Of a stretch of 64,000 bases of DNA, positions 5,018 through 45,556 are shown piece after piece. Both the position numbers and the translations under genes were made by a program. The stretch covers positions 3,831-67,830 of the forward strand of contig QZIT01000001.1 in the NCBI GenBank assembly GCA_003599145.1. Direction: 5' to 3'. The notes beneath the pieces are model-generated. The model was not told where the DNA came from. It ran no database searches and worked only from the letters and a program-made list of their open reading frames with translations. Position 1 is the first letter of the stretch, and the number at the start of each line of letters is the position of its first letter. This stretch comes from Candidatus Woesearchaeota archaeon (lineage in GTDB: Archaea; Nanobdellota; Nanobdellia; Woesearchaeales; UBA9642).

Positions 5018-6397
5018 TCAAGCCAATAAAGACAGCAACTGCTCTTTTGACGTACATTCTCGCATCAGCGCTGCAAGGAGCGGTTTATGAAATACTCCTG
5101 CAATCCAATTTGCAAAATGATGATCGTCATGGCGCGCATGGTGTGCGTAAACTCCTTCATCTGATGATTTCAGCACATCGATAAATTCTCCGATATTTCT
5201 TGCTGATTTGCCGTTGCTAAACCAAAAGTAAGCCGCCGGATCGCTGAGTGTTATCTGATACAGCTCATGCTTTTCTTTTTCCAGCGCAGACTCTTTTTGA
5301 GCAAAAGGATCAGAATGCTCAAATTCAGTAATCTTTTTGTCAGGATTGTGTTTCTTCATGAACTTTTCCAGCAGATCTCTTAAATCCATTCGCTGCAATT
5401 TTGGAGGTGTCTTATCCAGCTGCTGGGCATTGGGGTCATTCCATATTTCCCTAAAAGATATAGTCTCGGTAACTTCTTTGCTGTCAGATCCCTTTGGAGG
5501 CACTTCCAGAACATCTTCGACTTCAATTTTTTCCCTAATGATATCTTTATTCATAGTTTCACCTGTATCGCCATGCTTTGCATCCTGAGCATACTCTGCT
5601 GTTTGGCCATAAGTATCCGTTTTCTTTTGCACGTCATCAGGAGTCTGGTCTATTTTAACTCCTTTGGTTAGTCTGGATGCCTGTTCCAAAAACTGGCTTT
5701 GTCTTACCACATCCTGTTTAGGTATGGCAACTGTTTCTGATTCATTCTTAATAACATCGCTGATAATAATAGGTTCTTTTTCTATTTTCTCTGTTCTGAT
5801 TTCTGGCTGAACGAACGATGTTCTTGCCTGCTGAGGCGCTTGAAAAGAAGTTTTTTGTGAAGAAACTATCTGTGGCGCAAGCACTGCCTCTACTTCTTTT
5901 TCAATATCTGCTTCTTTTGGCATAGGAGGAACAACATTCTCTATTTCTGTAATTTTGCCTTTTTCAGGCTGTTTAATAAAAGGATTAAACTGGTTAGTTA
6001 AAAGCTCATACAAGGCAACATCAAATTTTTCGGTTTTTGCAACAACATCCTGAATTTGCAGTTTTGAATCGTCCATGAATTTTTTGAAATCCGCAAAATG
6101 CGTTGTCAGCTGAGTCATTTTTGCATCAATCTGCTTCAGCTTCTCTGTTTCGTTTGCTACATCCTTGAACTCTTCTTTCACCTTGCTGATAATAACGGGC
6201 AGAAGTGCTTCTATGTTCATTTGAGGAGCTTGTGTCTCTTGAGGTGTTTGCTGCACAGGCTGAACGTTCTGAACTTGCGACTGAGCAACTGCTTGCTGCG
6301 CTGGAGCAGCAGGCTGAGGAACCGGCTGAGAGGCAACAGGAGAAGGGATTTCAGGAGGGGCTCCTTTTTTCTTTAGCATATCAAGTAACATCTTCAA
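5018..6397 (-). CDS. FlaC-like archaellum accessory protein with long low-complexity linker and C-terminal DUF5752-like domain
   Basis: Coiled coil followed by LYELLTNQFNPF (FlaC motif). C-terminus YFWFSNG...EFIDVL...HH...HFANWI...LA. Start codon uncertain (6397, 6391 or 6379). Confidence 0.75.
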   Translation of the reverse strand: MKMLLDMLKKKGAPPEIPSPVASQPVPQPAAPAQQAVAQSQVQNVQPVQQTPQETQAPQMNIEALLPVIISKVKEEFKDVANETEKLKQIDAKMTQLTTHFADFKKFMDDSKLQIQDVVAKTEKFDVALYELLTNQFNPFIKQPEKGKITEIENVVPPMPKEADIEKEVEAVLAPQIVSSQKTSFQAPQQARTSFVQPEIRTEKIEKEPIIISDVIKNESETVAIPKQDVVRQSQFLEQASRLTKGVKIDQTPDDVQKKTDTYGQTAEYAQDAKHGDTGETMNKDIIREKIEVEDVLEVPPKGSDSKEVTETISFREIWNDPNAQQLDKTPPKLQRMDLRDLLEKFMKKHNPDKKITEFEHSDPFAQKESALEKEKHELYQITLSDPAAYFWFSNGKSARNIGEFIDVLKSSDEGVYAHHARHDDHHFANWIAGVFHKPLLAALMRECTSKEQLLSLLA

Positions 6398-6478
6398 CCT
6401 CTTTTTTACAGATACATCTACTGCAATCTATCTGTTATGTTAGTTTTTATTTTTACCTATATAAACTTTTCTAAAGAA

Positions 6479-7072
6479 TCAGTATATTTGAACGGCATAG
6501 GTTTTGATGCTGGGCACTCGTACATTAATAATACTGATTTCCCCTACTTTAGGGATTAACTGCAGCTCAAAGTTGTCATTGGATTCCAGCTTGTGTGACT
6601 CATTCAATTTATAGCGAATGTAGATAAGCTCTTCTTCTTCAACCTGAGGGTTGGTGTTTCCAAACAACGGTTCGAAGCAGTATGATGTCTCTGCAGTTAC
6701 ATTATCAAACGAACAGGTTTCATTAGAAGAGGAATTATACTCCAATTCTGCTGTAAATACGTTACTGCCCTCGACAAAAGTTATAAACATTTCCTGCAAA
6801 TCAACAGGAGACGATCCTGCCTTTAAGCGCCCCATTATTTCAATATTTTCAATAGTTCCTGCAGTGGTATTTGAGTATCCTGTTATCTTGACAAACTCCA
6901 TACCTGTAGTCAAACGCTCTCTTGCAACTTTCTCCACCTCAACTGCCTTAACGCCTATAACACCAGATGTTCTTACCAAAACGCCTGCAGCAATAGCGGC
7001 AGTCAGAATGGTTGCTATAAAAATAAGAAGCACGCCTACACCCATAATTGCTTTCTTATGAAACAGTCTCAC
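6479..7072 (-). CDS. flaB: Archaellin (FlaB/ArlB)
   Basis: Class III signal MRLFHKKA|IMGVGVLLIFIATILTAAIAAGVLV and RLKAGSSPVDL. Confidence 0.9.
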   Translation of the reverse strand: MRLFHKKAIMGVGVLLIFIATILTAAIAAGVLVRTSGVIGVKAVEVEKVARERLTTGMEFVKITGYSNTTAGTIENIEIMGRLKAGSSPVDLQEMFITFVEGSNVFTAELEYNSSSNETCSFDNVTAETSYCFEPLFGNTNPQVEEEELIYIRYKLNESHKLESNDNFELQLIPKVGEISIINVRVPSIKTYAVQIY

Positions 7073-7198
7073 TTTGCTTTATAAGAATGGGCAATATTTA
7101 AACTTTTTGTTTTTAAAATGGGGCATGATAAAGAAAGAAGCAGTAAAAGACAGCGATGAAAAGCGAAAAAGAATCAAAAAAGAGAAAAAAAACGCACT

Positions 7199-7420
7199 TT
7201 ACTTCTGCAGCCTGTCATAAATCCTTATGAGAACAAACGTCTGCGCAAAAATGGCCAGGATAAGCATCAACAATATTTCAACAACGGCAACCGTCGGATT
7301 CGCATTTCCTGAAGACAGCACTGCAACTAAAATGTAAATTGCCGCTATGCCTATCAATATCATAAACGCCACAATAATTTTCTCCAATATGTGAGAAGGA
7401 ACTTTTTTGTTTTCAGCCAT
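7199..7420 (-). CDS. Small two-TM membrane protein
   Basis: Two hydrophobic helices, GAGGTGA SD, sits between two archaellins. Confidence 0.7.
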   Translation of the reverse strand: MAENKKVPSHILEKIIVAFMILIGIAAIYILVAVLSSGNANPTVAVVEILLMLILAIFAQTFVLIRIYDRLQK

Positions 7421-7437
7421 ATCATCACCTCTTTATC

Positions 7438-8406
7438 TTATCCCCATAATTTTGTCTTTTCAACAACCAGCGTCGATGGGGAAATGGCGCTGATGGTCTC
7501 AATAGCACCCTCCTTAGGCAAAAATTGGAGTTCATAAATAGTCTCTATAGGAAGCTCATTGAAGGGTTTGAAATTAAAGCGAAGCTCTGCAATCTCTCCT
7601 GTTTCAAGCGTCGTATCACCATTGCCAATTTTATTGACAAAGCAAAACCTTCTCTCCTGAATAAGATTATCAAACGTGCATATGTTGCTTGAAGGAAAAT
7701 TATGAATAGTTGCGGTTAGGTTGTCCAAAGAGTCATTCGTTACTACGGTTCCTGAAATGGTAACAAACGCAAAGGTGACACCATTCACCTGCACAGGCTC
7801 ATTTTCAAGGTCTATGACATTTCCTGAAGTCAAATTCAAGGAACTGATATAGGCAACTACTCCTGCTTGGTCATCTTCATCGTCAGCATCAGGATTATTT
7901 GATGCATAGGAAAGATTAATCTCTAGCCTTTGATCTGCGTTACTATAACGTATCTGTTCTTCTGTAGTTGATGAAGCTTCTAAAATATTATCTTCAACAT
8001 CGCCGATATCTTGCCATGACGTGTTCACTAAGCTGATGTTGATATCATCAAAGCCGTCAGTCATGGTCGTATGCTGCAAAGATGCAGACATTGCTAAGTC
8101 TTGCGTGGTAAAGAGCAGTTTCAAGTTTTTGAGCTGAATAGGCAAGGATCCTGGCTTCAAGCGCACTAAAACAGAAAGGTCATTCATTTGCTCTGCCGAG
8201 ATATTTGCTGTTGCAGAAACACTGACTACTTCAACTCCTGAAACAAGCCTTTCTCTTGACTGTTCGCTTACGGTAACGGCTCTTTGCTGAAATAATCCAG
8301 ACTGTCTGATAATAATGCCAGCTGCCACAGCAGCAACTACAATAAGCGCAATTAAGATAATGAGCGTTTCCAGAGAAATCAGTGCCTTTTTCTTGAGATG
8401 TTCCAT
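7438..8406 (-). CDS. flaB: Archaellin (FlaB/ArlB) with large acidic insertion
   Basis: MEHLKKKA|LISLETLIILIALIVVAAVAAGII and RLKPGSLPIQL. Start moved to the Met preceding the signal peptide. Confidence 0.88.
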   Translation of the reverse strand: MEHLKKKALISLETLIILIALIVVAAVAAGIIIRQSGLFQQRAVTVSEQSRERLVSGVEVVSVSATANISAEQMNDLSVLVRLKPGSLPIQLKNLKLLFTTQDLAMSASLQHTTMTDGFDDINISLVNTSWQDIGDVEDNILEASSTTEEQIRYSNADQRLEINLSYASNNPDADDEDDQAGVVAYISSLNLTSGNVIDLENEPVQVNGVTFAFVTISGTVVTNDSLDNLTATIHNFPSSNICTFDNLIQERRFCFVNKIGNGDTTLETGEIAELRFNFKPFNELPIETIYELQFLPKEGAIETISAISPSTLVVEKTKLWG

Positions 8407-8560
8407 TAACCTTCCCTTGTCTATCAAAGGTATACGATTTCCTGCATTTATATAGTTTTTTATTCTAGAGATATAAAAAATAAACAGCCCATAAGGAACT
8501 GCATAGGTAAAAAAAGGTAAAAATAGTAACATTTATAAAAAAAGGAGTAAAAGAAAAAGC

Positions 8561-9268
8561 ATGCAAGATGCTGAAAAGTACAGTGAAGACAGAGAAAATA
8601 TCTATCAGAAATGCTTCATTTCCTTTGATTTTACTTCTGACAATGCCTACTCCTTTTTTATCAACAATCTTTCTAAAAAAACAAAAGGGCTTTGCATTAC
8701 CAGAAATCACCCTGATGAAATAGCTGCACATCACGGAAATGACTTTGAAATCCACTGGATGAGCCAAAAAAACAAGGGAAAAGGAAATTTGATGGAAGAA
8801 CTTGAGCGAAAAATAAAAAAATTCATAGGAGACAATGAAAACAGCGTTATTTTGCTGGAAAGAATCGATTATCTTATGAATCTTTACGGCTTTGAACAGT
8901 TTCTCAAGTTTATTTACGGCATGCACGAAGAGGTTCTCGATAAAAACGCCGTATTGCTAGTCCACTCTCATCCGCTTATCCTTACAGAGCACCAAAAGCA
9001 ATTGCTCGGCTTAGAGCTCAAAGAGTTGCCACAGCCGGAATACATGGAAAAAATAAAGGTGGCTGTTGATTTGTATGATATTTTAGGATTTCTCAAGACT
9101 CAGGATGCCAAGGTTAGCTTTAAGACCATAGGCAAGAAATTTTCTATAACCAAGGCAACCGCCAGAAAGAGAATTTACGAATTAAGCAACAGGGGATTGG
9201 TTAACGTAAAAAAAGACGGCAGGTCAAAAATAGTTGAGCTAACGAGAAAAGGGTTTGCGGTATTGTAA
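8561..9268 (+). CDS. DUF835 (inactive KaiC-like) domain fused to C-terminal wHTH
   Basis: GLCITR.HP, HWMS, VILLERIDYLM..YGFE..LKF are DUF835 features. The C-terminal FKTIGKKFSITKATARKRIYELSNRGLV is an HTH. Confidence 0.8.
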   Translation: MQDAEKYSEDRENIYQKCFISFDFTSDNAYSFFINNLSKKTKGLCITRNHPDEIAAHHGNDFEIHWMSQKNKGKGNLMEELERKIKKFIGDNENSVILLERIDYLMNLYGFEQFLKFIYGMHEEVLDKNAVLLVHSHPLILTEHQKQLLGLELKELPQPEYMEKIKVAVDLYDILGFLKTQDAKVSFKTIGKKFSITKATARKRIYELSNRGLVNVKKDGRSKIVELTRKGFAVL

Positions 9269-9286
9269 TTTTTCGCTACTTTTAAA

Positions 9287-9304
9287 TATCGGAATATTCC
9301 TATG
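9287..9304. promoter_or_regulatory. Putative operator overlapping the TATA box of the Bat-type HTH gene
   Basis: TATCGGAATATTCCTATG overlapping the end of TTTAAATA (9281-9288). Near-copy of the 9982 palindrome. Confidence 0.6.
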
Positions 9305-9311
9305 TTTAATT

Positions 9312-9980
9312 ATGTGGACTTTAAAGATAAAAGTAAGGGAAAAGTGGAATATTTATAATGAACGTACTGCAAAATTCCAGGTCAGGCTGTATTTTTATTC
9401 TCAAAATAACTATGAGGAAAAAGGAAAATTATATTTTGTAGCATCAGGAATGATTCAAGGAGAAGAAAAACAAAAAAAACAATTTTTTCTAGATTTAAAA
9501 AAAGATAAGAGAATCGTAAACGCAGAATTGCACAACGATTTTTTCATAACAGCGTATGCAGAATGTAAAACTAACGCACGATCTGAAGCAGCCAAAATCG
9601 CCTACAATCCCAGACTCATATTTATCAAGCCAGTCGTTATCGACGAAGACGGCTGGGAAGAATGGGAAATTGCATCAACAAAAAGAGAAGATTTAGAAGC
9701 ATTTATCGCATACGCAAAAAAACTAGAGAATATAGACAGTGAACTTTTTTATTTAAAAAACAAAAAAATAGGAAGTTTATTTATTCAATCCATGAGCCCT
9801 CAGCTCACAGAAAAACAGAAAAAAACGTTAGCTTTGGCTGTTGAAAACGGGTATTACGGCTATCCCCGAAAGATTAAACTCAAACAACTTGCAAAACAAA
9901 TGCGCGTTTCTGTATCAACCTATCAATTTCATTTAGCAAAAGCTGAAGCTAAACTCATACCCTTCTTCACTAAGAGATAA
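9312..9980 (+). CDS. Bacterio-opsin-activator-type (HTH_10) transcriptional regulator
   Basis: LTEKQKKTLALAVENGYYGYPRKIKLKQLAKQMRVSVSTYQFHLAKAEAKL. Confidence 0.88.
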   Translation: MWTLKIKVREKWNIYNERTAKFQVRLYFYSQNNYEEKGKLYFVASGMIQGEEKQKKQFFLDLKKDKRIVNAELHNDFFITAYAECKTNARSEAAKIAYNPRLIFIKPVVIDEDGWEEWEIASTKREDLEAFIAYAKKLENIDSELFYLKNKKIGSLFIQSMSPQLTEKQKKTLALAVENGYYGYPRKIKLKQLAKQMRVSVSTYQFHLAKAEAKLIPFFTKR

Positions 9981-14290: not shown

Positions 14291-14558
14291 AAAGGAAGTC
14301 ATGGTAAGCATCAGAATGCCCTCTTCGCTAGTTGCACAGCTCAAAGAGCTTGCAGTAAAGAAGCATTTTCTTGACATGGGAGAGCAATTGCGATCGCTCG
14401 TAAGAGAAAAATGCATGCAGCATCTCGACCCCTATTCTGGGGAAATGAAGAAATTCAGAGAAGAACTCAAACAGGAATTACTGCATAAAACGTCTGAAAA
14501 AAATGTTCTCATAAAAGACTTGAAAAGAATTGTGGAGGAGCTCAGCAATGAAAAATAA
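14274..14558 (+). CDS. Ribbon-helix-helix protein with C-terminal coiled coil
   Basis: MVSIRMPSSLVAQLKELAVKKHFLDMGEQLRSLVRE. Alternative start at 14301. Confidence 0.75.
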   Translation: MSTNSRKEVMVSIRMPSSLVAQLKELAVKKHFLDMGEQLRSLVREKCMQHLDPYSGEMKKFREELKQELLHKTSEKNVLIKDLKRIVEELSNEK

Positions 14559-17547
14559 ATGGCTACTGCTAGTGTTGATGATCATTTCTATGAGTGCACC
14601 TGTTCACGCGCTAACACTGATATCTCCAGACGACAATTTCATAACAGGAAATGCTTCACTACAGCTTACGTTTCAACATCAATTCAACAGCACAAACTTT
14701 TCCTGCGACGTATTGATAGACAATCAATCTCAAGGAATGCCCTATAACCTCAGCGAGCAAATTTTTGCATTTGACACTGTTTTCACAGAAGGATTGCACA
14801 CGTGGAGCATTGCTTGCATTAACGATAATATAACCATAGAGAGTGAAACAAGAAGCATAACGCTCGATACCTCTTCCCCTAACATCAGCATCCTTTCTCC
14901 GCTAGCAACAACGTATGGCACAAACAACATCACCTTTCACCTCAACGTTACCGATGTATTTCCCGCAGTTGACTGCCAGATGCATCTCGCATCTTCATCG
15001 TATAACACTGATGAAAATATGCAATTACAAACCAACACGCTCTATAGCAGCACCAAAACACTGCCCAATGGCCAGTATGCCCTTACCTTGCTCTGCACAG
15101 ACCAGCTAGGAAACAGCAATCAACAAGGCGTTAATTTTACGGTGAACAAAATAGAGCCGCTTTTTGATGTTGTGTTTGAAAAAAACGTGTATACTATGGG
15201 AGAAGCCATTGCCTTTGACATACGTGCAAACAATGGAAGCAATGTATTCTTAACCATTACTGCACCAAATGGAAACAGCTATGTTTGGAACTACAACGGG
15301 CAAAATTATCCAAAACATGAAGTTTTGCCCTATAGCAAGCGCTACGGCTCATACAATGTTATCGGAAACATGCAATATCTTAATTATTCTTTATCAGTAA
15401 ACAAAAACATCAACGTGCAAAGCAACATGGATGTGGAGATTAAGGGAAAAACAACCATCAACCTTTCAGAAAAGTTAACGCTGGAGGGCATTCCTTCAGG
15501 AGGTTTTGGAACGCTCAATCTTTCCTGGAAGTTAAGCAATGGTTCAACGGTGAAGAGCCACATCTTGGAAAGAACCTATGCAACATCAGGAAAATACACA
15601 GAAACATTTATCGTTGTTGACCAGGAAGGCAATGAACTCAAGAAGGATGTTGAAGTAAGTGTCAAACAAGCCTATAGACTCTATGTCTATGTTATTGATG
15701 GAAGTTCAAAGCTTCCCATCAAAGACGCCTTGTTGGAAATTGATGACGATGAATATTTAACAAACAGCGACGGCCTCGTTTCGCTAGATTTGCTTGAAGA
15801 TTCCTACGATATGACCATAAGCAAAGAAGACTACAAACCATACAGCGATTCATTTTCATTTCATGAAAACAGAACCTTGAATATTTCGCTCAACCTTGTT
15901 GATAAAACACCTCCCTCGATAACGTTAATGACCACTCCTGATGAGATACTTACAGAACCAAAAGCACTTACTTTTTCGGCAAATGACGTTGGATTGATGC
16001 AGTGCTCGCTTTACTTGAAACGACCAGAAGAGAGCTGGTCTGTATTGACGCAGACTTTACCAAACATTCAAGCCAATAAAGTCTACCAATTCAATGTTGA
16101 GAACATTACCGCAGGAAGCTACCAATGGAAAGTAGAATGCAAAGACAGCAACAACAATGGAGCGTTCAGCGAAGAACGCTCATTTTCAGTCAACAGTGAA
16201 GAGCTACTGAACACCATTCAAGAAAATGAAGACGCCATAGCTGGATTTACTGCAGCGCTTGAAACATTCAACACCCTCGATAAAGATGAACGCGAAGCAT
16301 TTGAAACCCTAAACATAAAAGAGCACATTGAAGAAACGCAAAAGCAAATGGAGCGCATAAAGAGAGACATGAATAATCTTATCTTCAGAAACGACCTTAC
16401 CAATGAGGAAAAGGAGCAGGAAAGGAAGATACTTCTTGAAAAAATGCAGGAAATCCAGCAAAATACACCTATAAGCATAACCGTAAAGGACAGCAAAACA
16501 TTTGTCAAATACCCCACTGTTGAAGAAGTTGAACGACTGCTTTTGGCTGTTTTAGGAAATGACGCCAATAAAAAGCTGCTCAAGAAAAATCAAGCATTGC
16601 AACAAAGCCTTTCCACAGCAACAAAGGCAAAAATTGTAGAAATTAGCTACCCTTCAAAAACAGAAACAGTAACGCTCATAGAGAAGCAAATCGCTTTAGA
16701 AAGCACAGAGTCAGGATTCTTAGCAGAGTATATTCCGCTAGCCATTGCCCAAGCAAAGGAGATAACCATACTTAATGAAGATTATCAAATTTTAGGAGAC
16801 TCTCTAATTAGATTCAGCACAGGCAACGTTATAGCATACACTATTCCAAAAGCAATCAACCTCGAGCTCGCGCAGGAAACTACAACTATTTTTGTTACCA
16901 AAGAGCAAACAGGCTCTACTCCAACAGGGTTTTCCATTAAAACAGTTTCCAACTCTCCCTATAGTTTAGGCATTCTTATTGCGATAGGCGTTCTCTTAGG
17001 AGGCTTTGTTGCAGTAAAAAGACTGAAAAGAAAGGATGAACAGCCTTTGTCAAAAAAGCCAGGTGTGCAAGAAGCTGAACAATCACAGAATACCACCCAA
17101 CAAGGCACTGTGCAATCATTATGGACAACCGTGAGCAAGGTATTGCCTCAGAAAACAGAAAACCCTCAATTTTTGCAATTGATTACTCTTATGTACCAAC
17201 ACATAGGCACAGGGGACTACCAGCAGGCGCTTTCATTGTATCAGTTAATGAAAACAGAATATGCCAAGCTTCCGCATAAGCAACAGCACAAGCATTACGG
17301 AGAACTGGTACATATTTGCACCTCTATCGATGTTCTCTATGCCAGAAAACTTGCAGATGATGTTACGGTACATCTTGCAAATTTCAAGCGAAAAGAAGCG
17401 CTAGAATCCTTCAACGTCTTTGCAGGAATTTTTCAAAGGCTGTCTGAAACAGGAAAGAATGAGCTCTATGAGAAATATGCGTATCTTTCATCGCAAATTG
17501 AAACCATCAGAACATCCATCATGATGGAATTGCAGTCAAAAGCATAA
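14548..17547 (+). CDS. Large membrane-anchored surface protein (Ig-like/PKD/PEGA-like domains, coiled coil, TM, cytoplasmic helical domain)
   Basis: Signal peptide MKNKWLLLVLMII, repeated W.(I/V).C.D Ig-type motifs, many NxS/T sequons, TM LGILIAIGVLLGGFVAV followed by a basic stretch. Confidence 0.8.
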   Translation: MKNKWLLLVLMIISMSAPVHALTLISPDDNFITGNASLQLTFQHQFNSTNFSCDVLIDNQSQGMPYNLSEQIFAFDTVFTEGLHTWSIACINDNITIESETRSITLDTSSPNISILSPLATTYGTNNITFHLNVTDVFPAVDCQMHLASSSYNTDENMQLQTNTLYSSTKTLPNGQYALTLLCTDQLGNSNQQGVNFTVNKIEPLFDVVFEKNVYTMGEAIAFDIRANNGSNVFLTITAPNGNSYVWNYNGQNYPKHEVLPYSKRYGSYNVIGNMQYLNYSLSVNKNINVQSNMDVEIKGKTTINLSEKLTLEGIPSGGFGTLNLSWKLSNGSTVKSHILERTYATSGKYTETFIVVDQEGNELKKDVEVSVKQAYRLYVYVIDGSSKLPIKDALLEIDDDEYLTNSDGLVSLDLLEDSYDMTISKEDYKPYSDSFSFHENRTLNISLNLVDKTPPSITLMTTPDEILTEPKALTFSANDVGLMQCSLYLKRPEESWSVLTQTLPNIQANKVYQFNVENITAGSYQWKVECKDSNNNGAFSEERSFSVNSEELLNTIQENEDAIAGFTAALETFNTLDKDEREAFETLNIKEHIEETQKQMERIKRDMNNLIFRNDLTNEEKEQERKILLEKMQEIQQNTPISITVKDSKTFVKYPTVEEVERLLLAVLGNDANKKLLKKNQALQQSLSTATKAKIVEISYPSKTETVTLIEKQIALESTESGFLAEYIPLAIAQAKEITILNEDYQILGDSLIRFSTGNVIAYTIPKAINLELAQETTTIFVTKEQTGSTPTGFSIKTVSNSPYSLGILIAIGVLLGGFVAVKRLKRKDEQPLSKKPGVQEAEQSQNTTQQGTVQSLWTTVSKVLPQKTENPQFLQLITLMYQHIGTGDYQQALSLYQLMKTEYAKLPHKQQHKHYGELVHICTSIDVLYARKLADDVTVHLANFKRKEALESFNVFAGIFQRLSETGKNELYEKYAYLSSQIETIRTSIMMELQSKA

Positions 17548-28100: not shown

Positions 28101-31100
28101 CTCGATGAGCAATGGCAACTTCCCCATTCAAATAGGAAAGAGAGGCGATGGAAATTACTTTATCGGTTCTGTTGATGATATCAGAATATACAATAGAAGC
28201 CTTACACCAAATCAAGTAAAACAGATGTACAATGAAACTGCACTTGGAAAAACAGACAACAGTACCATAACTGACTTAGAAACAATTACAGGAGAAAATT
28301 GGACTTGTTTCGTAACACCAAACGATGGATATGAAGACGGCTTAACAAAAAATACATCTGTTGTTATCACGGCAACCAACACTGCTCCATCCGTGAGCAC
28401 TCCCTATATACTTCCTATAACTCCAACTGCTTCAACAACAACACTCAACTGTTCAGTTATCCCTACAGATGCTGAACAAACAAGCTTGACTTTAAACTTT
28501 TCATGGTACAACGGAACAACAGTGTACAATTCAACACAGTACACCGTAGCAAACAATTCAAATTTTACCATGAATGTTTCTGTAGTTTTAAGAGCCCTGG
28601 AAGTTTGGAACTGCACTGTTTTTGCAAATGATGGAACAGATTCAGGAAATAGTAATAGCACCACCGTAACCGTTGTCAACGCAGAACCAACGCAAGATAC
28701 TCCAACAATTCTGCCTGCAAGCCCTGACGCACTTACGAACTTTACCTGCTATAATCAATCGACAACAGACGCAGATGGACATACGGTAACCAACATCTAT
28801 AATTGGCTTGTAAACAATGTTTCCATTACCGTATTGCATCTTCCTTTTGATACTAATGTAACGTCAACAGCAACGGGTGCAGTAAAGGACTATTCAGGAT
28901 ATAACAATAATGCAACGCTAGAAGGCGGAACAGAAACTCCAACGTACACCACCAACGGAAAAATTGGAGGCGCATATAACTTCAGTAGCGACCATATTAA
29001 CGTAACAGACCATGCAAGCATAGATACCACAACGGCATTTACTGTAGAGCTTTGGGCGTATCCTTCAACAACTGCAGCCGGAAGCTATGACATCATAGGA
29101 AAATATGCATGGGTAGCAGGCCAAGGGCTCTATCAAGTAAGGCAAAGTGGAACAAGCTTAGTTGTTTATGTAATTAACGGCGCCAGCACGAATACTGTAA
29201 CTGCAACAAGCTTTTTTACTGCAAACACTTGGCATCATATAGCAATATCCTTTAACAGTTCAAATGTGACTATTTACAAGAATGGAACCTGGGCAGCAAA
29301 TACAGACCCCACATTAGCGTTTTTACAAACAAATACACCTTTAATCATAGGAGCAAGAGCAGATACTGCAAGCGCAAATTATTTTTCTGGTGTATTGGAC
29401 AACATAAGAATATATAATAGAAGCCTTACTGGAAACCAAATAGCCGCATTGTATGCCGCAACGTCTGCAGGAAAAACAGACAACAGTACGATAACTGACT
29501 TAGAAACAAACAGCAGTGAAAACTGGACCTGCTTGGTAACGCCAAACGATGGAGCTGTTGATGGAATCATGAAAAACACCAGCGTACTTCTGCAAGAAGC
29601 TGCTGCTGACGAATGCGCTCCAAGTGGAGCATGGAATGTTACTTCTCTTATCAGCTGTTCTGACACAACAATTAGTGTAACCAGCATCAACATATCAACA
29701 GCAGGATACTTGAATCTCACCAGAGTCAATTTAACAACAGGAATAACCGAAGTTTTTGGAAACTTTACATCAAGAGACAGCCCCACAACCATATGGCAAA
29801 ATGGCAACCTCACCATTTATGGAATATATGGCTTAGATAACACAACACTGCGCATGAATGGAACAACTGACGGCATGTATGGCATCGTAGTCAATGACAG
29901 TGCATCCATGACTATCAACAACAGTGCGAATATTACTCGAGGTTCAACGAGCACGTTTAATTATTTCTTCAAAGTTAATACGGGCAGTACGTTTGTCATG
30001 AAAAATTCTATTTTAGAATATGCAGGTTGGTCTTCCACCATAAATCAAAGAGGATTAGAGATAAATACCACAGTTACGCAATTTCATAACAACACGATTT
30101 TAAATAATTTTTATGGGGCGGCTTTTTATGCGAATAATAGCATGATACGAGATAACAATATCACGAGAAACGTTATTGGGATGTACTTGGACTATTCCCA
30201 TAACAATTCTATAGTAAGCAATAATCTTTCAGGAAACAGCAATAGTGGAGCGACTCTTTATCTTGCCTATGGTCTTTTTTTAAACAGTGCAAACGCGAAT
30301 ACCATTACAAACAATGACCTATCAAATATCAGAACAAGTGTAGGCGCATTGCCAAGTCCTGCATATGGAATTTATATGATTAACAGCGAGAACAATACTG
30401 TTTCACAGGGAACATTCAACAACATTACTGGTCTTCAAGATGCTTCCAGCGATGTAGCTTCCTATGCAATATATCTTGCAACTTCAAATAACAATAACTT
30501 TTCAGCAAACAAAATATGGCAGGGCCATATCGGATACTATCTCGATGGATCAAACAGCACCGTAATTGACGGAACTTCAATAGCTAACACAACCTTTGAA
30601 GCTATTTATTTAAGGAATACTAAGAACAGCATAATAAGAAATATAGTGATGGAAAATGCATCTTACGCAGGAGATAGTACAACCACTCCTGGCGCTGCAG
30701 GAGTTTACCTCCAAGGCAGCTCTTCAAACAACATAACAAACATAACCATCAGAAAAAACATTTTGGGAATGCGGTTTGGAAGTTACGGAACTAGCTATTC
30801 AAATACAAACAGAGTGATGAATTCAACAATTTTTAACAACACCAAGGGGATTTATGCAGAATTTGGAAATGCAAATTATTTTATTGACTCTGTGGTTAAC
30901 TTTTCAGCTCAAGATGATATCTACTTTAAAAATGGAACATCTACAGCTCCCGCAAACATCACCTTTATCAATGTAACACACAGAAAGGGAAATATAACAT
31001 TCAACACAACAAACTGCCAGAATGCCGCAACACCATTCTGCCAGTTAAACGTGTACTGGTATTTGAATGTTCAAGTCAATGAAAGCGCAACAGGAATCAA

Positions 31101-34100
31101 TCAAGCATTGGACCAGGCAACGGTAACGGCAACCAATGTCAGCGGGATACAAACCTTCAGCACATTGACTAATTCTACAGGATGGATAACGCGGCAAAAT
31201 GTTTCAGAATATTGGCAGAATGCAACGTTAGCCAGCTATCAGACTAATTATACGATTAACGCAACAAAAACGTTTTACAAGAAAAACAGCACTGCATTGA
31301 ATATCACTTCTTCAACCATCATGTACTTAAGCTTGCAAAGAGATACGCCTTATATAACGCAACTGAACATAACTCCGACAAGAGCATACAACAACGACAC
31401 CTTAAATTGCAGTGTTACCGCTGTTCATGACACGCTAACAAACTTGAACATCTCCATCACTTGGTATAATCTTTCAGGAGGTAGCTATGTTTATTATAAT
31501 AATACAAATATCAGTACAACCAACAATACGCAAGTAAGCTGGTTGCTGGATAGCAGCGTAACCTGGAAAGGAGAAACGTGGAACTGCACGGTAATTGCAA
31601 ATGATGGAACGTGGAATTCTACAAGGAACTCAACAACACAGTATATCTATAATCTTGAGCCGCAACATACAACACCAATCATTCTTCCTGCAAGCGTCAA
31701 TAATGACACCAACTTTACTTGCATAAATCAGTCAACCATCGATCTTGACAGTTCAAGTGTGGTAAACATCTACAATTGGCTGGTTAACGGAACACCCATT
31801 ATGGTGTTAAACATGCCTTTTGAAACAAACACTTCAAGTTCTGCAAGCGGAGCAATAAAAGATTATTCTGGTTACGACAATAATGGAACATTATCCAGCA
31901 GTACTGGACCAACATGGATAGCAGGAAAAATTGGAGGAGCATATGACTTTGATGGAGCTGATGATTCTATGAGCATTCCTAACTCCATATCATTAAACTC
32001 TACAAAAAACATCACCATAGCGTTCTGGATAAAGCCAAAAACATTCACAGAGCCAAACCCATATATTCTCTATAAAGGCGCAAGCGACCTGAACGCAGTT
32101 GAGTATCTTGTAAGATTTTCCAGCTCAAAAATGGTTTTCATATTTTATAATCAGAGTGGATTTTCAACCGTCCAAGTAGCGTCTACAAGCACCTTGGCAA
32201 CAAACACCTTTTATTTTGTAGCAGCGACGTACAATGGCTCAAATTTGAGCATCTATATTAATGGAACACTGCAAAACAGCACTCTGAGTAATGTCACGAT
32301 AAGGACAAACGCAAACACGATAGACGTAGGATATATATCAACAGTCTGCGCAGATACTTGTTACGCAAACATGACTCTCGACGAGCTTAAAATATTCAAC
32401 AGAAGTTTAACCGCCAATCAAATATGGCAAATGTACTTAGAGGGAAACAACAGCATAGGAAATAGTACGATAACTGATTTAGAAACAAATACGGGTGATA
32501 ACTGGACGTGTGAGGTAATTCCCAATGACCAGGAAGATGATGGCACAACAAAAGACGTTTCTGTGATTATTGCTGCATCAAACATAGCCCCATCTGTATC
32601 TGCGATAACCATCAATTCAACTGATGGAACAAATGTGACAACACAAGACCTTCATTGCAATGCAACCATAACAGACCCTGAAGGCACAGCGTTGAATGTG
32701 TCTGTACAATGGTATAAAAATGGCGTTGTAAATTATTCTCAAGATTACAATAACAGTTATAGCAATGGAACTATGTTTAACGCAACCCTTGGTTCAGGAA
32801 ACACCACCAAAGGAGATATTTGGTTTTGCAGTTTTAGGGCATCTGATGGAAGCCTTACCAGCGATTGGATAAACTCTTCTAATCTAACGATACTCAACAG
32901 CAATCCTATCATGATAACCAGTAGAATAAATCCTTCTCCGACAGCGCTTGACAGCGATACGCTTTCAGGATACTGCAATGCAACTGATGCAGACAATGAC
33001 AGCGTTGTTTATTACTGGCAGTGGTGGAAAAACAGCGTGCTTGATTCAAGCGGGAATGGAAACTTTTCAACATCGCTTTGTTATCAGGAAACAGCAACCA
33101 CCAGTACTGCCTGCGGAGGGTTATCTACTGGAACCTATCTATGCTCAGGCGATTGGGATGGCACTCAAACTTGTGCGTTAGTCTATGATGGAAGTTGGGC
33201 AACATACGGAACAGCAACGTCAAACGATCCTGGTGCAACACTCTACATTAATTACACAAAGCCAACAAATGCTATTTCAACAAGTTTATGGGAGATAAAA
33301 GACAATAGCGCGCAAACAAATCTTAGCATGAGTGCTAGCTGCTGGAGTCAGAGCATACTGCAGCTATCTGCAGGCGTTGGAAGCAGCATTCACCAAGAAT
33401 GGAGCTGCTATACAGGCTCTGGATGGACTGCGATTCGTGCACTCAGTGGAGCAGGAACCTATAGGGCCTATGAAGAAGCCATGTGGTGGAACATATCATT
33501 TTATCATGCACAAGGAATAGAAGCATTGGTATCCAATGTTTCCGACAGTTTAACAAGTGCAGGAGATTCATGGATTTTTTCATGCTTGGCAGATGATGCA
33601 ACAGCAAATAGTTCATGGATGAACAGCACGGCAACAACCATTAATGAGAGCACAACCTACGACTTTGAAGTCAACAGCACCAATATCACGTTCAGCACCA
33701 ATAATCCTGTAGAAAATGAAGTTATGACGCTTTTCGCAACCGTCTATAATCTGGGAAATACGAATGCAACCAATGTCACGATTCAATTTTTTGATGGCGA
33801 TCAGGAAAACGGAACTCAAGTAAACGGCAATATTACCAGAAACATTTCAGCTGGGAGCTATGTTACCGTAAATGTTTCCTGGACAGTAACTCAAGGAACG
33901 CATAATTTCTATGCGCTTGCAGACCCTCCTTATGGAACTGGCAGTTTTTCTGAAACAGCTGAAACCAACAACATTGCCAACAAAACACTCACCGTATCAA
34001 TCTGGCAAGTCTATTATGGCCTTATGAACACCACTGTATTTCTAGCAACTTCACAAAATATATCGCTGCAGAAATGGTGGGCTGCAAATGTTACTGGAAA

Positions 34101-34575
34101 CATTTACGTTTCAGATACAGACACAACCAACGGAGTTTCATTCACTACCCTACAGGCTATTTACAGAAACACATCAAACATGACCAACGCCAACACCCAG
34201 AACGACTTTGAAAATATTGACGCTAATTTGGAAACAACTAACTATAGCGATAGCGTCAACGCAACCTTCACGGTAAGCGGAGCTCCTGCAGCAACAAAAA
34301 CTATCAACAGCTATAACAAAAACATTGCAAATATCTCTGTTGTTAACAGCACAAATACCTCTTCATTTATCACAGGCATCTTATGGGATACTTCTGACTC
34401 AAGCAATGACTATTATGACACTGGCGAGAAGGAAGATCTCATATTTATCACTGAAATAAACATGTCCAAACAAGGGCAGTACGGAACCTATGATTACGAA
34501 ATCAAAATACCTGCAAATTTAAGGTCATATAAAGGCAGTGATGCAAGCGTAGTGTTTTATTACGAGATAAACTGA
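25099..34575 (+). CDS. Giant (3158 aa) secreted modular adhesin-like protein: Cys-rich repeat, three LamG, beta-helix (NosD/PbH1), disulfide Ig repeats, CARDB, conserved C-terminal domain
   Basis: Signal peptide; VHHFSAY; CGNGVVEGTEECD; LamG motifs (TISAWI, WHM/WHH, DDIRIYNRSLT); Asn-rich beta-helix; CARDB (ATVYNLG...ETNNIA); very dense NxS/T sequons; no C-terminal TM. Confidence 0.88.
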   Translation: MNALKRVLLGFWLILLVLPLTSGLTLNTHNLILGETLEINITDQTNNRITISNGEDIYVYQGSPEIIKFVPKKTGDYKIAMSDALTNAAIEQEEFTVSSAPLQPEVILFDKPAYTSGDKVIISFNSDQEELKVTISSSTDFYQFLGTVHESIEFVPNKADVYTVNAYAQDQVIGTATFYVATKTKHTTETIIDYSALSDKDLERQLRDFFPAVTFKGVLKNEQGAFPTFDLTIASDDAKAQATLKGVKDINQLTQIDIIKEANADKSQYNIVGDIVAVNAIALESATIQLSKEGAVTGVLECDDFIFGTNKCKNWQVSSTPFIDYGTYVIFTVHHFSAYTIWYNFTTNLTNRAYKGADITNPPHANPSSWFNASTALTSAEYTAINISDDNRANVSYFTNGTGWNIHMFEFKINQSASLINSIMLYWEGYGSKNNETDANNNISMFLYNFSQNNWTANLNTSCLAGACNSTTSEKNISYNLTTSISDFINSSGYLRFIITEYDNVTAASEGGAVCGNGVVEGTEECDYTSTDCASPSAQKCSTGATCPDPPACSGRGLYLQCQTDCTYYCGSCIAICPFIYSWDGSQYFYDNVILQQIETKEKETLQIKPFNFPLLVNDSYIVQIREYKPETSYFDTFYVIINDSYENETTTTEIKPASETYNIAALLYEDGEYLKIEYGEIVPIVFRPIPPLKQGYKREVFFAAKGYYEFYNDLDKQYYDLRNGICYLPSQKEKIQVVSTTCGPPPEEVRTEITVHNTLYTDQAKVFVAYNNSPPTHSTPVITPTDPLTEENFTCYNQSTSDIDGNTVSNIYAWTVNGAPLMLLYLPLDSNVTNTTTGAVKDYSTLNNNGTLGPNTETPLWNSSGIIRGDYYFDGGDYINISDQSYFSPNETRNMTISAWINIPSGASASTSGGCGGTGRYFLTKAGASNWEWGFENDNNNLLCFCLWRASDGATYGCGSSSRTMNDATWHMYTATINYGSYMTLYVDGVNTTTVSSFTNSMSNGNFPIQIGKRGDGNYFIGSVDDIRIYNRSLTPNQVKQMYNETALGKTDNSTITDLETITGENWTCFVTPNDGYEDGLTKNTSVVITATNTAPSVSTPYILPITPTASTTTLNCSVIPTDAEQTSLTLNFSWYNGTTVYNSTQYTVANNSNFTMNVSVVLRALEVWNCTVFANDGTDSGNSNSTTVTVVNAEPTQDTPTILPASPDALTNFTCYNQSTTDADGHTVTNIYNWLVNNVSITVLHLPFDTNVTSTATGAVKDYSGYNNNATLEGGTETPTYTTNGKIGGAYNFSSDHINVTDHASIDTTTAFTVELWAYPSTTAAGSYDIIGKYAWVAGQGLYQVRQSGTSLVVYVINGASTNTVTATSFFTANTWHHIAISFNSSNVTIYKNGTWAANTDPTLAFLQTNTPLIIGARADTASANYFSGVLDNIRIYNRSLTGNQIAALYAATSAGKTDNSTITDLETNSSENWTCLVTPNDGAVDGIMKNTSVLLQEAAADECAPSGAWNVTSLISCSDTTISVTSINISTAGYLNLTRVNLTTGITEVFGNFTSRDSPTTIWQNGNLTIYGIYGLDNTTLRMNGTTDGMYGIVVNDSASMTINNSANITRGSTSTFNYFFKVNTGSTFVMKNSILEYAGWSSTINQRGLEINTTVTQFHNNTILNNFYGAAFYANNSMIRDNNITRNVIGMYLDYSHNNSIVSNNLSGNSNSGATLYLAYGLFLNSANANTITNNDLSNIRTSVGALPSPAYGIYMINSENNTVSQGTFNNITGLQDASSDVASYAIYLATSNNNNFSANKIWQGHIGYYLDGSNSTVIDGTSIANTTFEAIYLRNTKNSIIRNIVMENASYAGDSTTTPGAAGVYLQGSSSNNITNITIRKNILGMRFGSYGTSYSNTNRVMNSTIFNNTKGIYAEFGNANYFIDSVVNFSAQDDIYFKNGTSTAPANITFINVTHRKGNITFNTTNCQNAATPFCQLNVYWYLNVQVNESATGINQALDQATVTATNVSGIQTFSTLTNSTGWITRQNVSEYWQNATLASYQTNYTINATKTFYKKNSTALNITSSTIMYLSLQRDTPYITQLNITPTRAYNNDTLNCSVTAVHDTLTNLNISITWYNLSGGSYVYYNNTNISTTNNTQVSWLLDSSVTWKGETWNCTVIANDGTWNSTRNSTTQYIYNLEPQHTTPIILPASVNNDTNFTCINQSTIDLDSSSVVNIYNWLVNGTPIMVLNMPFETNTSSSASGAIKDYSGYDNNGTLSSSTGPTWIAGKIGGAYDFDGADDSMSIPNSISLNSTKNITIAFWIKPKTFTEPNPYILYKGASDLNAVEYLVRFSSSKMVFIFYNQSGFSTVQVASTSTLATNTFYFVAATYNGSNLSIYINGTLQNSTLSNVTIRTNANTIDVGYISTVCADTCYANMTLDELKIFNRSLTANQIWQMYLEGNNSIGNSTITDLETNTGDNWTCEVIPNDQEDDGTTKDVSVIIAASNIAPSVSAITINSTDGTNVTTQDLHCNATITDPEGTALNVSVQWYKNGVVNYSQDYNNSYSNGTMFNATLGSGNTTKGDIWFCSFRASDGSLTSDWINSSNLTILNSNPIMITSRINPSPTALDSDTLSGYCNATDADNDSVVYYWQWWKNSVLDSSGNGNFSTSLCYQETATTSTACGGLSTGTYLCSGDWDGTQTCALVYDGSWATYGTATSNDPGATLYINYTKPTNAISTSLWEIKDNSAQTNLSMSASCWSQSILQLSAGVGSSIHQEWSCYTGSGWTAIRALSGAGTYRAYEEAMWWNISFYHAQGIEALVSNVSDSLTSAGDSWIFSCLADDATANSSWMNSTATTINESTTYDFEVNSTNITFSTNNPVENEVMTLFATVYNLGNTNATNVTIQFFDGDQENGTQVNGNITRNISAGSYVTVNVSWTVTQGTHNFYALADPPYGTGSFSETAETNNIANKTLTVSIWQVYYGLMNTTVFLATSQNISLQKWWAANVTGNIYVSDTDTTNGVSFTTLQAIYRNTSNMTNANTQNDFENIDANLETTNYSDSVNATFTVSGAPAATKTINSYNKNIANISVVNSTNTSSFITGILWDTSDSSNDYYDTGEKEDLIFITEINMSKQGQYGTYDYEIKIPANLRSYKGSDASVVFYYEIN

Positions 34576-42306: not shown

Positions 42307-42378
42307 ACTGGAAAAAGAGCCTACAGGTATATAAAGTTTATTGATAAACTATATAAAGAAAGCCTCCTCCTAAGAACT

Positions 42379-42897: not shown

Positions 42898-42906
42898 GCT
42901 CAATCA

Positions 42907-45180
42907 TCAGCCCATATACACAGGCCTTTGCTCTTTCATTTCTTCTCCTCTTGCACTAGAGAAATGCTCTTTTAATTTTTCATAGGCTTCTTCAACTTCT
43001 TTGCTCACCGAAGGCCTTACTTTTTTCAATGCTTCAGTAAAATGCTTTAATTTCACATCCTTTGCCTTCATATCTTCTCTCAAGGCAAGAATAGCTGCTT
43101 CCCTGCATACTGATTCGATATCTGCGCCAACATAGCCTTGGGTTTTATCAATAAGTTTTTTTACATCAACATCTTTTGCAAGAGGCATGTTTTTGGTATG
43201 GACTTTAAAAATCTCTTCACGGGATTTTGTATCAGGCACAGGCGTTAAAATAATCCTGTCAAATCTTCCAGGTCTTAACAAGGCAGAATCAACCATATCT
43301 GGCCTGTTGGTTGCGGCTACAACCACAACATCATTCAAATCCTCTAAGCCATCTAATTCAGTGAGTAACTGATTAACAACTCGCTCTGTAACGTGATTGT
43401 CTGATGTAGATGATCTGCGAGGGGCAATAGAGTCTATTTCATCAAAGAAAATAATAGTAGGACTTGCTTGTCTGGCTTTTTGAAAGACCTTTCTTACTGC
43501 TTTTTCGCTTTCCCCAACCCACTTGCTTAACAATTCAGGGCCTTTCACAACAATAAAGTTAGATTCGCTCTCCGTAGCTATGGCTTTAGCCAATAGTGTT
43601 TTTCCCGTCCCTGGAGCTCCATAAATCAAAACGCCTTTAGGAGGCTTTACTCCTAATCTGATAAATGATTTTTTGTTTTTTAATGGCCAGTCAATGGCTT
43701 CTATCAACTCCTGCTTTACGCTGTCTAAACCGCCAACATCTGTCCATGCAACATTGGGCTTTTCAATAAGCACTTCTCTTAATGCGCTAGGCCTAACAAA
43801 TCGCAGGGCTTTTAAAAAGTCTTCTTGCCCTATTCTCAGCTTCTCCAAAAATTCTTTTGGAATAGCTTCAAGGTCATCCATTTTTAAATTAGGAAGCTCT
43901 CTTCTCAAAACAATCATGGCAGCTTCTTTTGCAAGACTTGCAACATCAGCACCGACAAAACCGTGCGTTATGTCAGCAAGCTTTTTTAAATTGACTGTTT
44001 TATCCAGAGGCATGTTTCTCGTGTGAATTTTCAAAATGTTTAATCTTCCCGGGGTTCTTGGAACGCCAATTTCAATTTCCCTGTCAAACCTGCCTGGTCT
44101 TCTCAATGCAGGATCCAAAGCATTAGGGATGTTAGATGCTGCAATAACCACAACTTTACCTCTGCTTTTCAAGCCATCCATCATGGCTAACAGTTGGGCC
44201 ACAACTCTTTTTTCAACTTCGCCATGCACTTCCTCTCTTTTGCTTGCAATAGCATCAATCTCGTCTATGAAAATAATAGAAGGCGCATTTTTCTCTGCTT
44301 CTTCAAACTTCTTTCTCAAGTTTTGTTCGCTTTCTCCATAATACTTACTGATAATTTCAGGTCCATTGATTAATATAAAGTTTGCATTGGTTTCATTTGC
44401 TACTGCTCTTGCCAACAAAGTTTTTCCAGTTCCAGGAGGACCGTGCAATAGAACTCCTTTTGGAGGATCTATGCCAAGTCTTTCAAAAATTTCAGGATGT
44501 TTTAAAGGAAGCTCAATCATTTCTCTTACCTGGCTGACTTCTTCATCCAAACCACCAATATCTTCATAGGTAACATCAGGAACTTTTTCCTCTTTTAAGG
44601 CAACAGCCTCTGGATTAAAGACAACTTCGGTAACTTCTGTAATAATAACTGGTTCTTTAGGAAGGGTATCAATAACAATAAATTTCAAATCTCCCAAACC
44701 AAAACCAATCATGCTTTCATCAATCATGTTGAAAACATCGTCAAAAAACGGACTATGGCTTAACGTATTTCTTCTGCTTCTCGTGCCTCCTAAACTCACA
44801 ACATCGCCTTTAACTACAGCCCTGCCCAATAATCCTTGCTTGAAAATAACAGGATTTGCCCTTATCACCAAGCCCTCCCGGGCAGGAGCAATAATGACTT
44901 TTTTGGCCTCTTTCACCTGTATTTTTCTAATGGCAATGACATCACCTATGGAAGCTTTGGAGTTTCTTCTCAATAAACCGTCCATCCTAATAATATTTAA
45001 TCCAATATCTCCAGGATAGGCTCTATCGGCTATTGCAATGGTCTTTCTCTGGCCTTCGATTTCTACAATATCGCCAGGACGAGCATCTATCTGGTGCATG
45101 AAGCTGGTATCTATCCTGACAATGCCCTTATTGACATCATCCTGAATAGCTTCAGCAACTTTTAACTTCACATCCTTCAT
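42907..45180 (-). CDS. cdc48: Cdc48/VCP family AAA+ ATPase
   Basis: Two AAA modules ([33 protein letters not shown]) and an N-domain. Confidence 0.97.
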
Positions 45181-45280
45181 AAAAGCGCTGAATTTACGGC
45201 AGAATAAAAAGGTTGTGGTTTTCCCAGACAAAAGATTTATAAATAAGTTCGTGCTCAATATCTCTAAAGAGGTGGGTGAT

Positions 45281-45556
45281 ATGGATAAGAAGATTCTTGA
45301 TGCGCCAGAGCAGCATTATTTTCATATAGCAGGAGGAGTTTCTGTAAAAAACATCAAAGAGCTTTTGCGCGAGCTGAAAAAAATGAAAACAGAAACCTAT
45401 CAGCACCATGTAAACGCAAACAAAAATGACTTTTCCAATTGGTTAAACGACATTTTTCAGGAAACAAAGCTTGCCAAAGAGATGTATACGGCAACCAAAA
45501 GCAAGGCAGCCATGCTTATTGCTGCAAGAATAAAACAATTGGAAAAAAAGAAATAA
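45281..45556 (+). CDS. Stand-alone DUF5752-like protein
   Basis: YFHIAGG...NIKELL..LKKM..ETYQHHVNANKNDFSNWLNDIF...LA. Strong SD. Divergent from cdc48. Confidence 0.8.
   Translation: MDKKILDAPEQHYFHIAGGVSVKNIKELLRELKKMKTETYQHHVNANKNDFSNWLNDIFQETKLAKEMYTATKSKAAMLIAARIKQLEKKK

Follow-up and report, generated by a model that had tools for sequence, protein, structure and literature searches.

Three proteins encoded in a 64-kb stretch of DNA from a Woesearchaeota archaeon (contig QZIT01000001.1, positions 3,831 to 67,830; hereafter, this whole stretch is called the window) carry copies of the same small module, which is one repeat of the Pfam family DUF5752 (PF19027) and has the fold of OrfY from Thermoproteus tenax. 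The carriers are a FlaC-like archaellum accessory protein, a HerA-type membrane ATPase and a free protein encoded beside a Cdc48-type ATPase. We propose that the module may serve generally for docking: acting in pairs, it would bring the proteins that carry it into contact, often at the membrane. To this reading we assign a probability of about 0.4. The domain family and its fold were already known from Pfam and the Protein Data Bank (PDB). New here are the single-module unit of DUF5752/OrfY, the range of its carriers (FlaC, CheW, ParA/MinD, KaiC, HerA, ScpA and several enzymes) and a pair of genes for a soluble and a tail-anchored protein, located in GT4–GH57 (glycogen) operons, as the default form of the module.

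The window (38.5% G+C, free of N, with 62 open reading frames (ORFs) called) belongs to a contig at least 157,558 bases long, and what is said of it applies to these 64 kb and not to a genome. An earlier note, made from the sequence alone, had reported a shared motif at the C-terminus of the FlaC-like protein, at the C-terminus of the ATPase and in the free protein; all three segments are present at these places, and their alignment agrees with the motif. Pairwise BLASTP of the segments gave 25–34% identity over 64–73 residues (E 7e-9 to 2e-12 in two-sequence searches). When a profile of the three copies was run against the 1,049 six-frame pieces of the window of at least 30 amino acids (aa), it matched the three copies only, at E 1e-46 to 7e-36, and the next best piece scored E 0.54, leaving no fourth copy among these pieces. 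Leave-one-out profiles regained the omitted copy in each case (FlaC, E 2e-8; ATPase, E 2.6e-10; free protein, E 1.5e-15), with the next best piece at 0.13–1.1. The pairwise, profile and leave-one-out matches therefore show that the segments are three homologous copies of one module of about 75 residues (75–85 at the FlaC C-terminus) and that the window holds no fourth.

Next, the copies were compared with the 208-position Pfam model of DUF5752, which has a curated gathering cut-off of 23 bits. The free protein scored 22.7 bits (E 7.2e-5) at profile positions 128–186 and the ATPase tail 16.0 bits (E 0.0081) at positions 54–78, and the FlaC copy gave no match at E≤1. The DUF5752 label of the earlier note was thus right in kind, although none of the copies reaches the cut-off. 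Because the free and ATPase copies match different parts of the model, an internal duplication in DUF5752 is suggested. A profile search of the PDB confirmed this: the sole significant match was 4CSO, OrfY of T. tenax (216 residues), which aligned to the module twice, at about residues 16–87 and 132–191 (E 3.7e-4 with the three-copy profile and E 1.2e-4 with a profile of 28 sequences), showing that DUF5752/OrfY is a two-repeat chain. AlphaFold2, given 27 short relatives of the free protein, modelled it as a β-hairpin followed by five helices (predicted local distance difference test (pLDDT) 91.1, predicted template modelling score (pTM) 0.80). Foldseek placed this model on the 4CSO chains with probability 0.99–1.00 (TMq 0.58–0.61, root-mean-square deviation 2.1–2.3 Å, about 80 columns), and every other match in the PDB had a probability of at most 0.11. 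In an ESM Atlas look-up, the DUF5752 family set was common to 27 of the 30 feature hits; the first-ranked scores were 0.92–0.93, and the three first-ranked clusters contain proteins of 94–101 residues. Alignment of 28 stand-alone sequences revealed six invariant positions, F14, G19, H43, N49, D50 and W54. A literature search, with most subscription journals outside its reach, found no paper on DUF5752, PF19027 or OrfY with T. tenax. In that organism, orfY presumably neighbours treT, the gene for trehalose synthase, which would suit the sugar-enzyme setting described below. OrfY is not mentioned in the passages searched of the T. tenax trehalose paper (PMC3634074).

The module belongs to a large family whose members carry it at protein termini. 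When 1.84 billion cluster representatives were scanned by HMMER with the three-copy profile, 4,531 matched at E≤1e-3, 1,810 at E≤1e-10 and 24 at E≤1e-30, with lengths of 90–1,970 residues. We scanned 126 of the 149 listed representatives against Pfam (117 + 9, excluding the free protein of the window itself). PF19027 was found at E≤1e-4 in about 80 of the 117 top representatives scanned (a hand count), which ties the module to bona fide DUF5752 members by profile search. Many relatives have modules back to back, as in P0011 (residues 1–88 and 84–170). FlaC_arch was a partner in six of the 126 (P0018, which is the protein of the window, P0083, P0092, P0093, P0102 and P0142), HerA/DUF87 in eight, mostly together with CarboxypepD_reg, a KaiC-type ATPase in five, and CheW, ParA/MinD and an Ig-like membrane protein in one each. 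Genomic loci, described below, added three HerA-type membrane ATPases (L012, L030 and L067) and fusions to acetate kinase (L031, L042, L052 and L077), ScpA (L023 and L032), GH57 (L014), the C-terminal half of transketolase (L055) and a 2-hydroxyacid dehydrogenase (L072). The survey of fusion partners that the earlier note had called for therefore shows that both kinds of fusion seen in the window recur, with 12 FlaC-type proteins on one side and eight HerA-type proteins plus the three loci on the other. The top-scoring profile matches form a group of their own, 390–540 aa proteins (P0005, P0007–P0030 and P0037) with two C-terminal modules and no Pfam family besides DUF5752; they share an N-terminal MVKKLISGLL, a repeated VPDELPxL and a conserved coiled coil (..KWxxQKxALEEDxKFLxEREKEI..).

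To describe the genomic setting of the module, we scanned one genome per Genome Taxonomy Database species with the pattern [KR]NDFSNW[ILT][NRK], taken from a 10-sequence alignment. Of the 134 stretches matched, 103 could be confirmed; the 80 loci retained from these hold 148 module-bearing ORFs. Most loci are labelled as Woesearchaeota or Nanoarchaeota metagenome-assembled genomes, and a few as Dehalococcoidia, Saccharibacteria, Bacteroidota, Alphaproteobacteria or Methanosarcinales. Small module genes occurred as adjacent pairs in 43 of the 80 loci, as triples in seven and singly in 20, and 10 loci had none below 300 aa. GH57 was a neighbour in 54 loci, a GT4 glycosyltransferase in 53, ParA/MinD in eight (after the module genes), a GalT-like enzyme in six, GDE_C in five and PGM in four; the commonest setting was an operon in the order GT4, GH57, module, module. 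The members of a pair differ: with a 19-mer of mean Kyte–Doolittle value of at least 1.6 as the criterion, a hydrophobic segment was found in none of the 43 first products but in 24 of the 43 second products, as well as in the last product of six of the seven triples. It lies at the extreme C-terminus of the second product and has a glycine-zipper-like pattern. The common stand-alone form is therefore a soluble plus a tail-anchored module protein.

Several features of these loci stand out on their own. The tail-anchor segments of second module proteins (in L002, L003, L004 and others; for example, L003 8757–9188) read E/D-F-x-x-G-x-x-x-G-x-x-x-G, a pattern pointing to self-association in the membrane. 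In 26 of the 80 loci, mostly of DPANN archaea (for example, L001–L003 and L030), the GT4, GH57 and module genes have a glycogen synthase of eukaryotic type (PF05693; E 7e-167 in L003) next to them. Separate helix-turn-helix (HTH) genes occur in the GT4–GH57 operons, namely wHTH45 in 16, HTH_24 in eight and HTH_20 in seven of the 80 loci. Locus L077, labelled Alphaproteobacteria, shares its arrangement of module–acetate kinase, DUF1232, TruD and adenylate kinase genes with L042, a Woesearchaeota locus, and the Woesearchaeota-type GT4–GH57–module operon recurs in many of the loci labelled as uncultured Methanosarcinales; these organism labels look unreliable.

The FlaC-like protein is encoded in an archaellum cluster, directly downstream of two archaellin genes and within 5 kb of FlaF/G-like, FlaH and FlaI genes. 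Its match to FlaC_arch (PF05377; residues 86–141) scored 23.7 bits against a cut-off of 27.8, and its relatives P0093, P0102, P0083, P0092 and P0142 scored 32.4–40.6 bits (P0093 and P0102, 32.4–32.5). Translation probably starts at ATG 6391 (MLLDMLKKK) and not at TTG 6397, because relatives begin with MLLDLFK and the N-terminus of the family reads MLLD(L/M)(F/L)K. Eight more relatives, including one named Candidatus Woesearchaeota, were retrieved by a word-based search with the protein (E 3e-46 to 3e-76). One or two modules lay at the C-terminus of each of the 12 FlaC-type proteins tested; the fusion is therefore a small conserved family and not a one-off. In a ten-member alignment, four parts were conserved, namely the N-terminal MLLDLFK, the FlaC helix, a central motif (..VEDVLDVP..E(V/T)SETLSF.E.WNDP.A..L..TPPKL.R.DLK.LL.KF..KH) and the module. 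The full-length model contained a helix at residues 60–135 (pLDDT 70–86), a hairpin–helix at 205–239, long stretches with pLDDT below 50 and a confident module at about 380–457. The approximately 240 residues before the module are thus mostly low-confidence linker, which places the module on a long tether that is, judging from the model, probably flexible. The window copy (..HHARHDDHHFANW..) has His-His in place of the Asn-Asp kept by nine relatives and the stand-alone family. This copy is also unusually rich in histidine (YAHHARHDDHHFANW).

According to published work, ArlC, ArlD and ArlE form a peripheral switch complex of the euryarchaeal motor that docks on the motor and is required for CheF binding; they occur in varied fusions, and FlaC is usually fused to a second C-terminal domain (PMC7534055, PMC12488501). 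Because ArlC/D/E dock CheF on the motor, the FlaC C-terminus is a natural site for an input or docking domain, and in the window a DUF5752-type module occupies the position of FlaD/E there.

The ATPase begins with a basic N-terminus, followed by a transmembrane segment, an ectodomain of about 550 aa, a second transmembrane segment, a cytoplasmic P-loop ATPase, a coiled coil and the module (hydrophobic segments were taken from the translation). The ectodomain is rich in N-x-S/T sequons and contains a CarboxypepD_reg Ig-like domain (38.2 bits); the ATPase part matched DUF87 (PF01935; 49.6 bits, cut-off 23.2) and HerA_C (35 bits) and has the Walker A and B motifs (GSTGSGKS and LLLVYDE). Against the NCBIfam equivalogs for CedD, the HerA repair helicase and TraD, it scored far under the cut-offs (best, CedD with 41.7 against 600). 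Homologues with 39–44% identity over nearly the whole length occur in L012, L030 and L067. In L012 and L067, the protein encoded immediately upstream of the ATPase homologue is a homologue of the PKD/Ig surface protein of the window, and in L030 and L067 the ATPase is followed by a homologue of the 442 aa coiled-coil protein (21286–22614). In the window and L012, the ATPase ends directly after the first module. It is longer in L030 and L067, with two modules in L067, and in both of these loci it is followed by another protein, whose module is N-terminal. L012 and L030 also have free module genes a few kb or less from the ATPase locus.

On the window side of this comparison, the ORF that follows the ATPase gene (118 aa; 20943–21299, +) overlaps the ATPase stop codon by four bases and is weakly like the C-terminal half of the post-ATPase module protein in L067 (BLASTP E 2e-5 in a tiny search), as if, by its sequence, the module part of that protein were missing here. 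A jackhmmer search with this ORF found no relatives among the loci and family hits. A second, smaller HerA/DUF87 ATPase of 441 aa (58477–59802, −), which is also Zot-like, has no module.

Docking is the reading that we favour because the module is a compact terminal domain, is duplicated in tandem or in adjacent genes, has a tail-anchored partner, is carried by scaffold proteins and enzymes, and sits on a probably flexible tether in FlaC. Support also comes from the presence of scaffold and positioning proteins (FlaC, HerA, KaiC, CheW and ParA/MinD) among the partners. Two modules, within one chain or on two proteins, would form the functional unit. The commonest form of the module is the soluble and the tail-anchored protein from adjacent genes of the α-glucan operon; elsewhere, flexible linkers join it to the ends of cytoplasmic proteins of very different kinds. 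In the window, it could offer a common docking surface to the archaellum motor periphery, through FlaC, to the cytoplasmic tail of the HerA-type ATPase and to the free soluble protein, and the three carriers might be tethered to one another or to membrane-anchored module proteins encoded elsewhere. Recruitment of this kind would depend on pairing, as would any link between motility and the ATPase. In a wider form, which we think improbable, the module would be a universal address tag in DPANN archaea, some members of the candidate phyla radiation and Chloroflexota: tail-anchored docking sites would gather FlaC motors, CheW arrays, ParA/MinD, the chromosome (through ScpA), surface-directed HerA ATPases and the enzymes of glycogen and central carbon metabolism into a membrane-proximal hub by pairing, perhaps tuned by a metabolite at the His/Asn/Asp/Trp site.

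Several points weigh against docking. Binding between modules is something that we infer. Profiles of first-gene and second-gene products fail to sort the window copies into complementary types, because their scores are too close (95.0 versus 93.5 bits for the free copy, 59.9 versus 69.4 for the ATPase copy and 46.1 versus 49.6 for the FlaC copy). The Pfam scores of the window copies all lie under the curated cut-off, and the Foldseek E-values to 4CSO are modest (0.06–0.18). The loci were drawn by one peptide pattern, and the context statistics therefore describe one subfamily. Three of the six invariant positions are polar, and a ligand site would explain this no less well than a protein interface. 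A predicted complex of the FlaC-tail module (residues 371–457) with the free module, run without controls, received a score of 0.00 and a mark of 0.32 and counts neither for nor against binding.

The main rival takes the module for a small-molecule sensor, allosteric like CBS and ACT domains, that binds a sugar, sugar phosphate, nucleotide sugar or nucleotide and passes the carbon or energy state to glycogen enzymes, central-carbon enzymes, ATPases, CheW and the archaellum. This is possible, though we hold it doubtful, and it does not exclude docking. The invariant polar and aromatic residues H43, N49, D50 and W54 of the stand-alone sequences would suit such a site, the operons tie the module strongly to α-glucan enzymes (GH57, GT4 and PF05693, and also GDE_C, PGM and GalT-like proteins), and it is fused to enzymes (GH57, acetate kinase, transketolase and 2-hydroxyacid dehydrogenase) as well as to CheW and KaiC, which are signalling proteins. 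CBS domains, too, work in pairs. Our searches, however, found no ligand, pocket or related ligand-binding fold, Foldseek matching 4CSO only, and partners such as ScpA, FlaC and ParA/MinD, as well as tail-anchored stand-alone forms, are unusual in allosteric sensor domains. The near-invariant Asn-Asp pair is, moreover, lost from the FlaC copy of the window, whose His-His argues against one identical ligand site in the three copies. The description of the module in the earlier note as a ligand-binding or interaction module is fair in general terms, with this restriction on a site common to all three.

The same note went further and proposed that the module takes a shared signal that switches between swimming, through FlaC, and attachment, through the membrane ATPase, in place of Che, CheF and FlaD/E. 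The window offers some grounds for this. The FlaC-like protein has the module where euryarchaeal FlaC-type proteins have FlaD/E, the FlaC and ATPase fusions both recur, and, as had been noted, FlaD/E and che genes are not seen: none of the 62 ORFs contains a CheA, W, Y, R, B, C, D or F domain, and Arch_fla_DE and CheF (DUF439) gave no match in the FlaC-like protein at E≤1, in 55 ORFs at E≤1e-3 or in 11 otherwise unannotated ORFs at E≤1. These results hold for 64 kb of the genome. The wider distribution argues the other way, since the module is commonest in the GT4–GH57 operon and is fused to many unrelated enzymes and scaffolds, and hence is not dedicated to motility. It is, in addition, found with Che proteins and not in their place: one top representative is a CheW–module fusion, the module is C-terminal in eight of its 120 listed homologues, and the closest named relatives among the matches listed, whose CheW part is 53–59% identical, carry the labels Nanobdellota, Nanoarchaeota, Aenigmarchaeota or archaeon. 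As the nearest named relatives are DPANN, Che proteins do occur in DPANN-type archaea, and one of these proteins carries the module; this weakens the idea that the module replaces Che. Nothing found here supports an attachment role for the ATPase, and the FlaC copy deviates at the most conserved polar pair. We therefore do not retain the proposed switch, which we consider quite unlikely.

DNA binding, which would tie all three carriers to nucleic acid, is the least probable of these readings and in our view very unlikely. It is prompted by the deposition of 4CSO under the name 'ORFY protein, transcription factor' and by HerA/FtsK-type ATPases and ScpA, partners that act on DNA in other systems. 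Structure searches gave no likeness to an HTH or other DNA-binding fold, the matches other than 4CSO being those of low Foldseek probability; the GT4–GH57 operons have HTH genes of their own, many stand-alone forms are anchored in the membrane by their tails, and the fusions to FlaC, CheW and metabolic enzymes are at odds with DNA binding. Like the swim-or-stick switch, this reading accords poorly with the distribution of the module.

Table 1. Features of the window that bear on the three module copies, in order of position.
Feature	Position	Strand	Basis or remark
FlaI	2–1096	−	T2SSE match; runs off the window
FlaH	1154–1894	−	KaiC-type ATPase match
153 aa ORF	1949–2410	−	No family assigned; in the archaellum motor gene group
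FlaF/G-like protein	2444–2911	−	Arch_flagellin match
FlaC/ArlC-like archaellum accessory protein	5018–6391 (ORF 5018–6397)	−	FlaC_arch match below cut-off; module at C-terminus
Module copy 1, FlaC C-terminus, divergent	5021–5242	−	Pairwise, profile and leave-one-out matches; pLDDT ≥90 in full-length model
Putative FlaC coiled-coil region	5975–6142	−	PF05377 at residues 86–141; long helix 60–135 in AlphaFold2 model
Two archaellin genes	6479–7072, 7438–8532	−	Arch_flagellin, E 2e-19 each; upstream of the FlaC-like gene
PKD/Ig-domain surface protein	14530–17547	+	PKD_4; conserved partner upstream of the ATPase
Two-pass membrane HerA/FtsK-type ATPase, 1,123 residues	17575–20946	+	DUF87, HerA_C, CarboxypepD_reg; Walker motifs
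Module copy 2, ATPase C-terminus, cytoplasmic side	20686–20943	+	Pairwise, profile and leave-one-out matches; DUF5752, 16.0 bits
Two coiled-coil ORFs, 118 aa and 442 aa	20943–22614	+	Downstream of the ATPase; no Pfam family
Cdc48/VCP-type AAA+ ATPase	42907–45258	−	CDC48_N and two AAA domains; divergent from the free module gene
Module copy 3, free single-module protein, 91 aa	45281–45556	+	ATG 45281; alternative upstream starts to GTG 45215

The free module protein has no hydrophobic segment in its translation and is thus soluble, and a word-based homology search with it found only itself. The earlier note had described it as standing alone beside Cdc48. This setting is not conserved: a Cdc48 homologue (E≤1e-8) was found within 10 kb of a module in none of the 80 related loci, and we therefore rejected a functional link between the two.

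Other genes of the window are recorded here as neighbours. Between the FlaC-like gene and the FlaF/G-H-I group, the archaellum cluster is split by three genes on the opposite strand (2898–5011, +), which encode a 248 aa protein weakly like archaellin or pilin (E 0.003), a 258 aa protein without a Pfam family and a 192 aa HTH protein (HTH_20 / HVO_A0114-like). Divergent from the archaellin genes, a DUF835 plus winged-helix protein and an HTH_10 protein (8561–9980, +) are candidate regulators of the cluster. Further along, a 3,158 aa ORF (25099–34575, +) with three Laminin_G_3 (concanavalin-like) domains probably encodes a giant surface protein; homologues of the preceding 165 aa ORF occur in L059 and L076.

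In DPANN archaea, the module ranks among the most freely combined domains, reaching motility, chemotaxis, positioning, the chromosome, a secretion-type ATPase and carbon metabolism. It thus provides a testable handle on how the cytoplasm is organised and regulated in very small, host-dependent archaea, and it bears on the replacement of FlaD/E at the periphery of their archaellum motor.

The module and its carriers can be set beside four known systems. CBS (Bateman) and ACT domains offer a functional analogy only: they too are small paired modules that stand alone or are appended to many unrelated enzymes and machines, but their fold is unrelated to that of the module, and the comparison rests on patterns of architecture. 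The ATPase shares DUF87 and HerA_C above the cut-off and the Walker motifs with the HerA/FtsK superfamily, within which CedD, TraD/TraC and VirB4-like proteins are distant, and differs by its two-pass topology, its large sequon-rich ectodomain and its C-terminal module, or two. The FlaC-like protein resembles ArlC/D/E of Euryarchaeota in its putative N-terminal FlaC coiled coil and in the place of its gene beside the archaellins within the archaellum cluster, whereas its C-terminal part is a DUF5752-type module and not FlaD/E, and its FlaC_arch score is below the Pfam cut-off. OrfY (4CSO) has the same fold and the same signature, ..HHV..NDF(A/S)(N/R)W..LA.., as the module. OrfY and the PF19027 model hold two modules in a chain of 208–216 residues, whereas the window has no such tandem chain and instead carries one module in each of three proteins, in two of them appended to a large protein.

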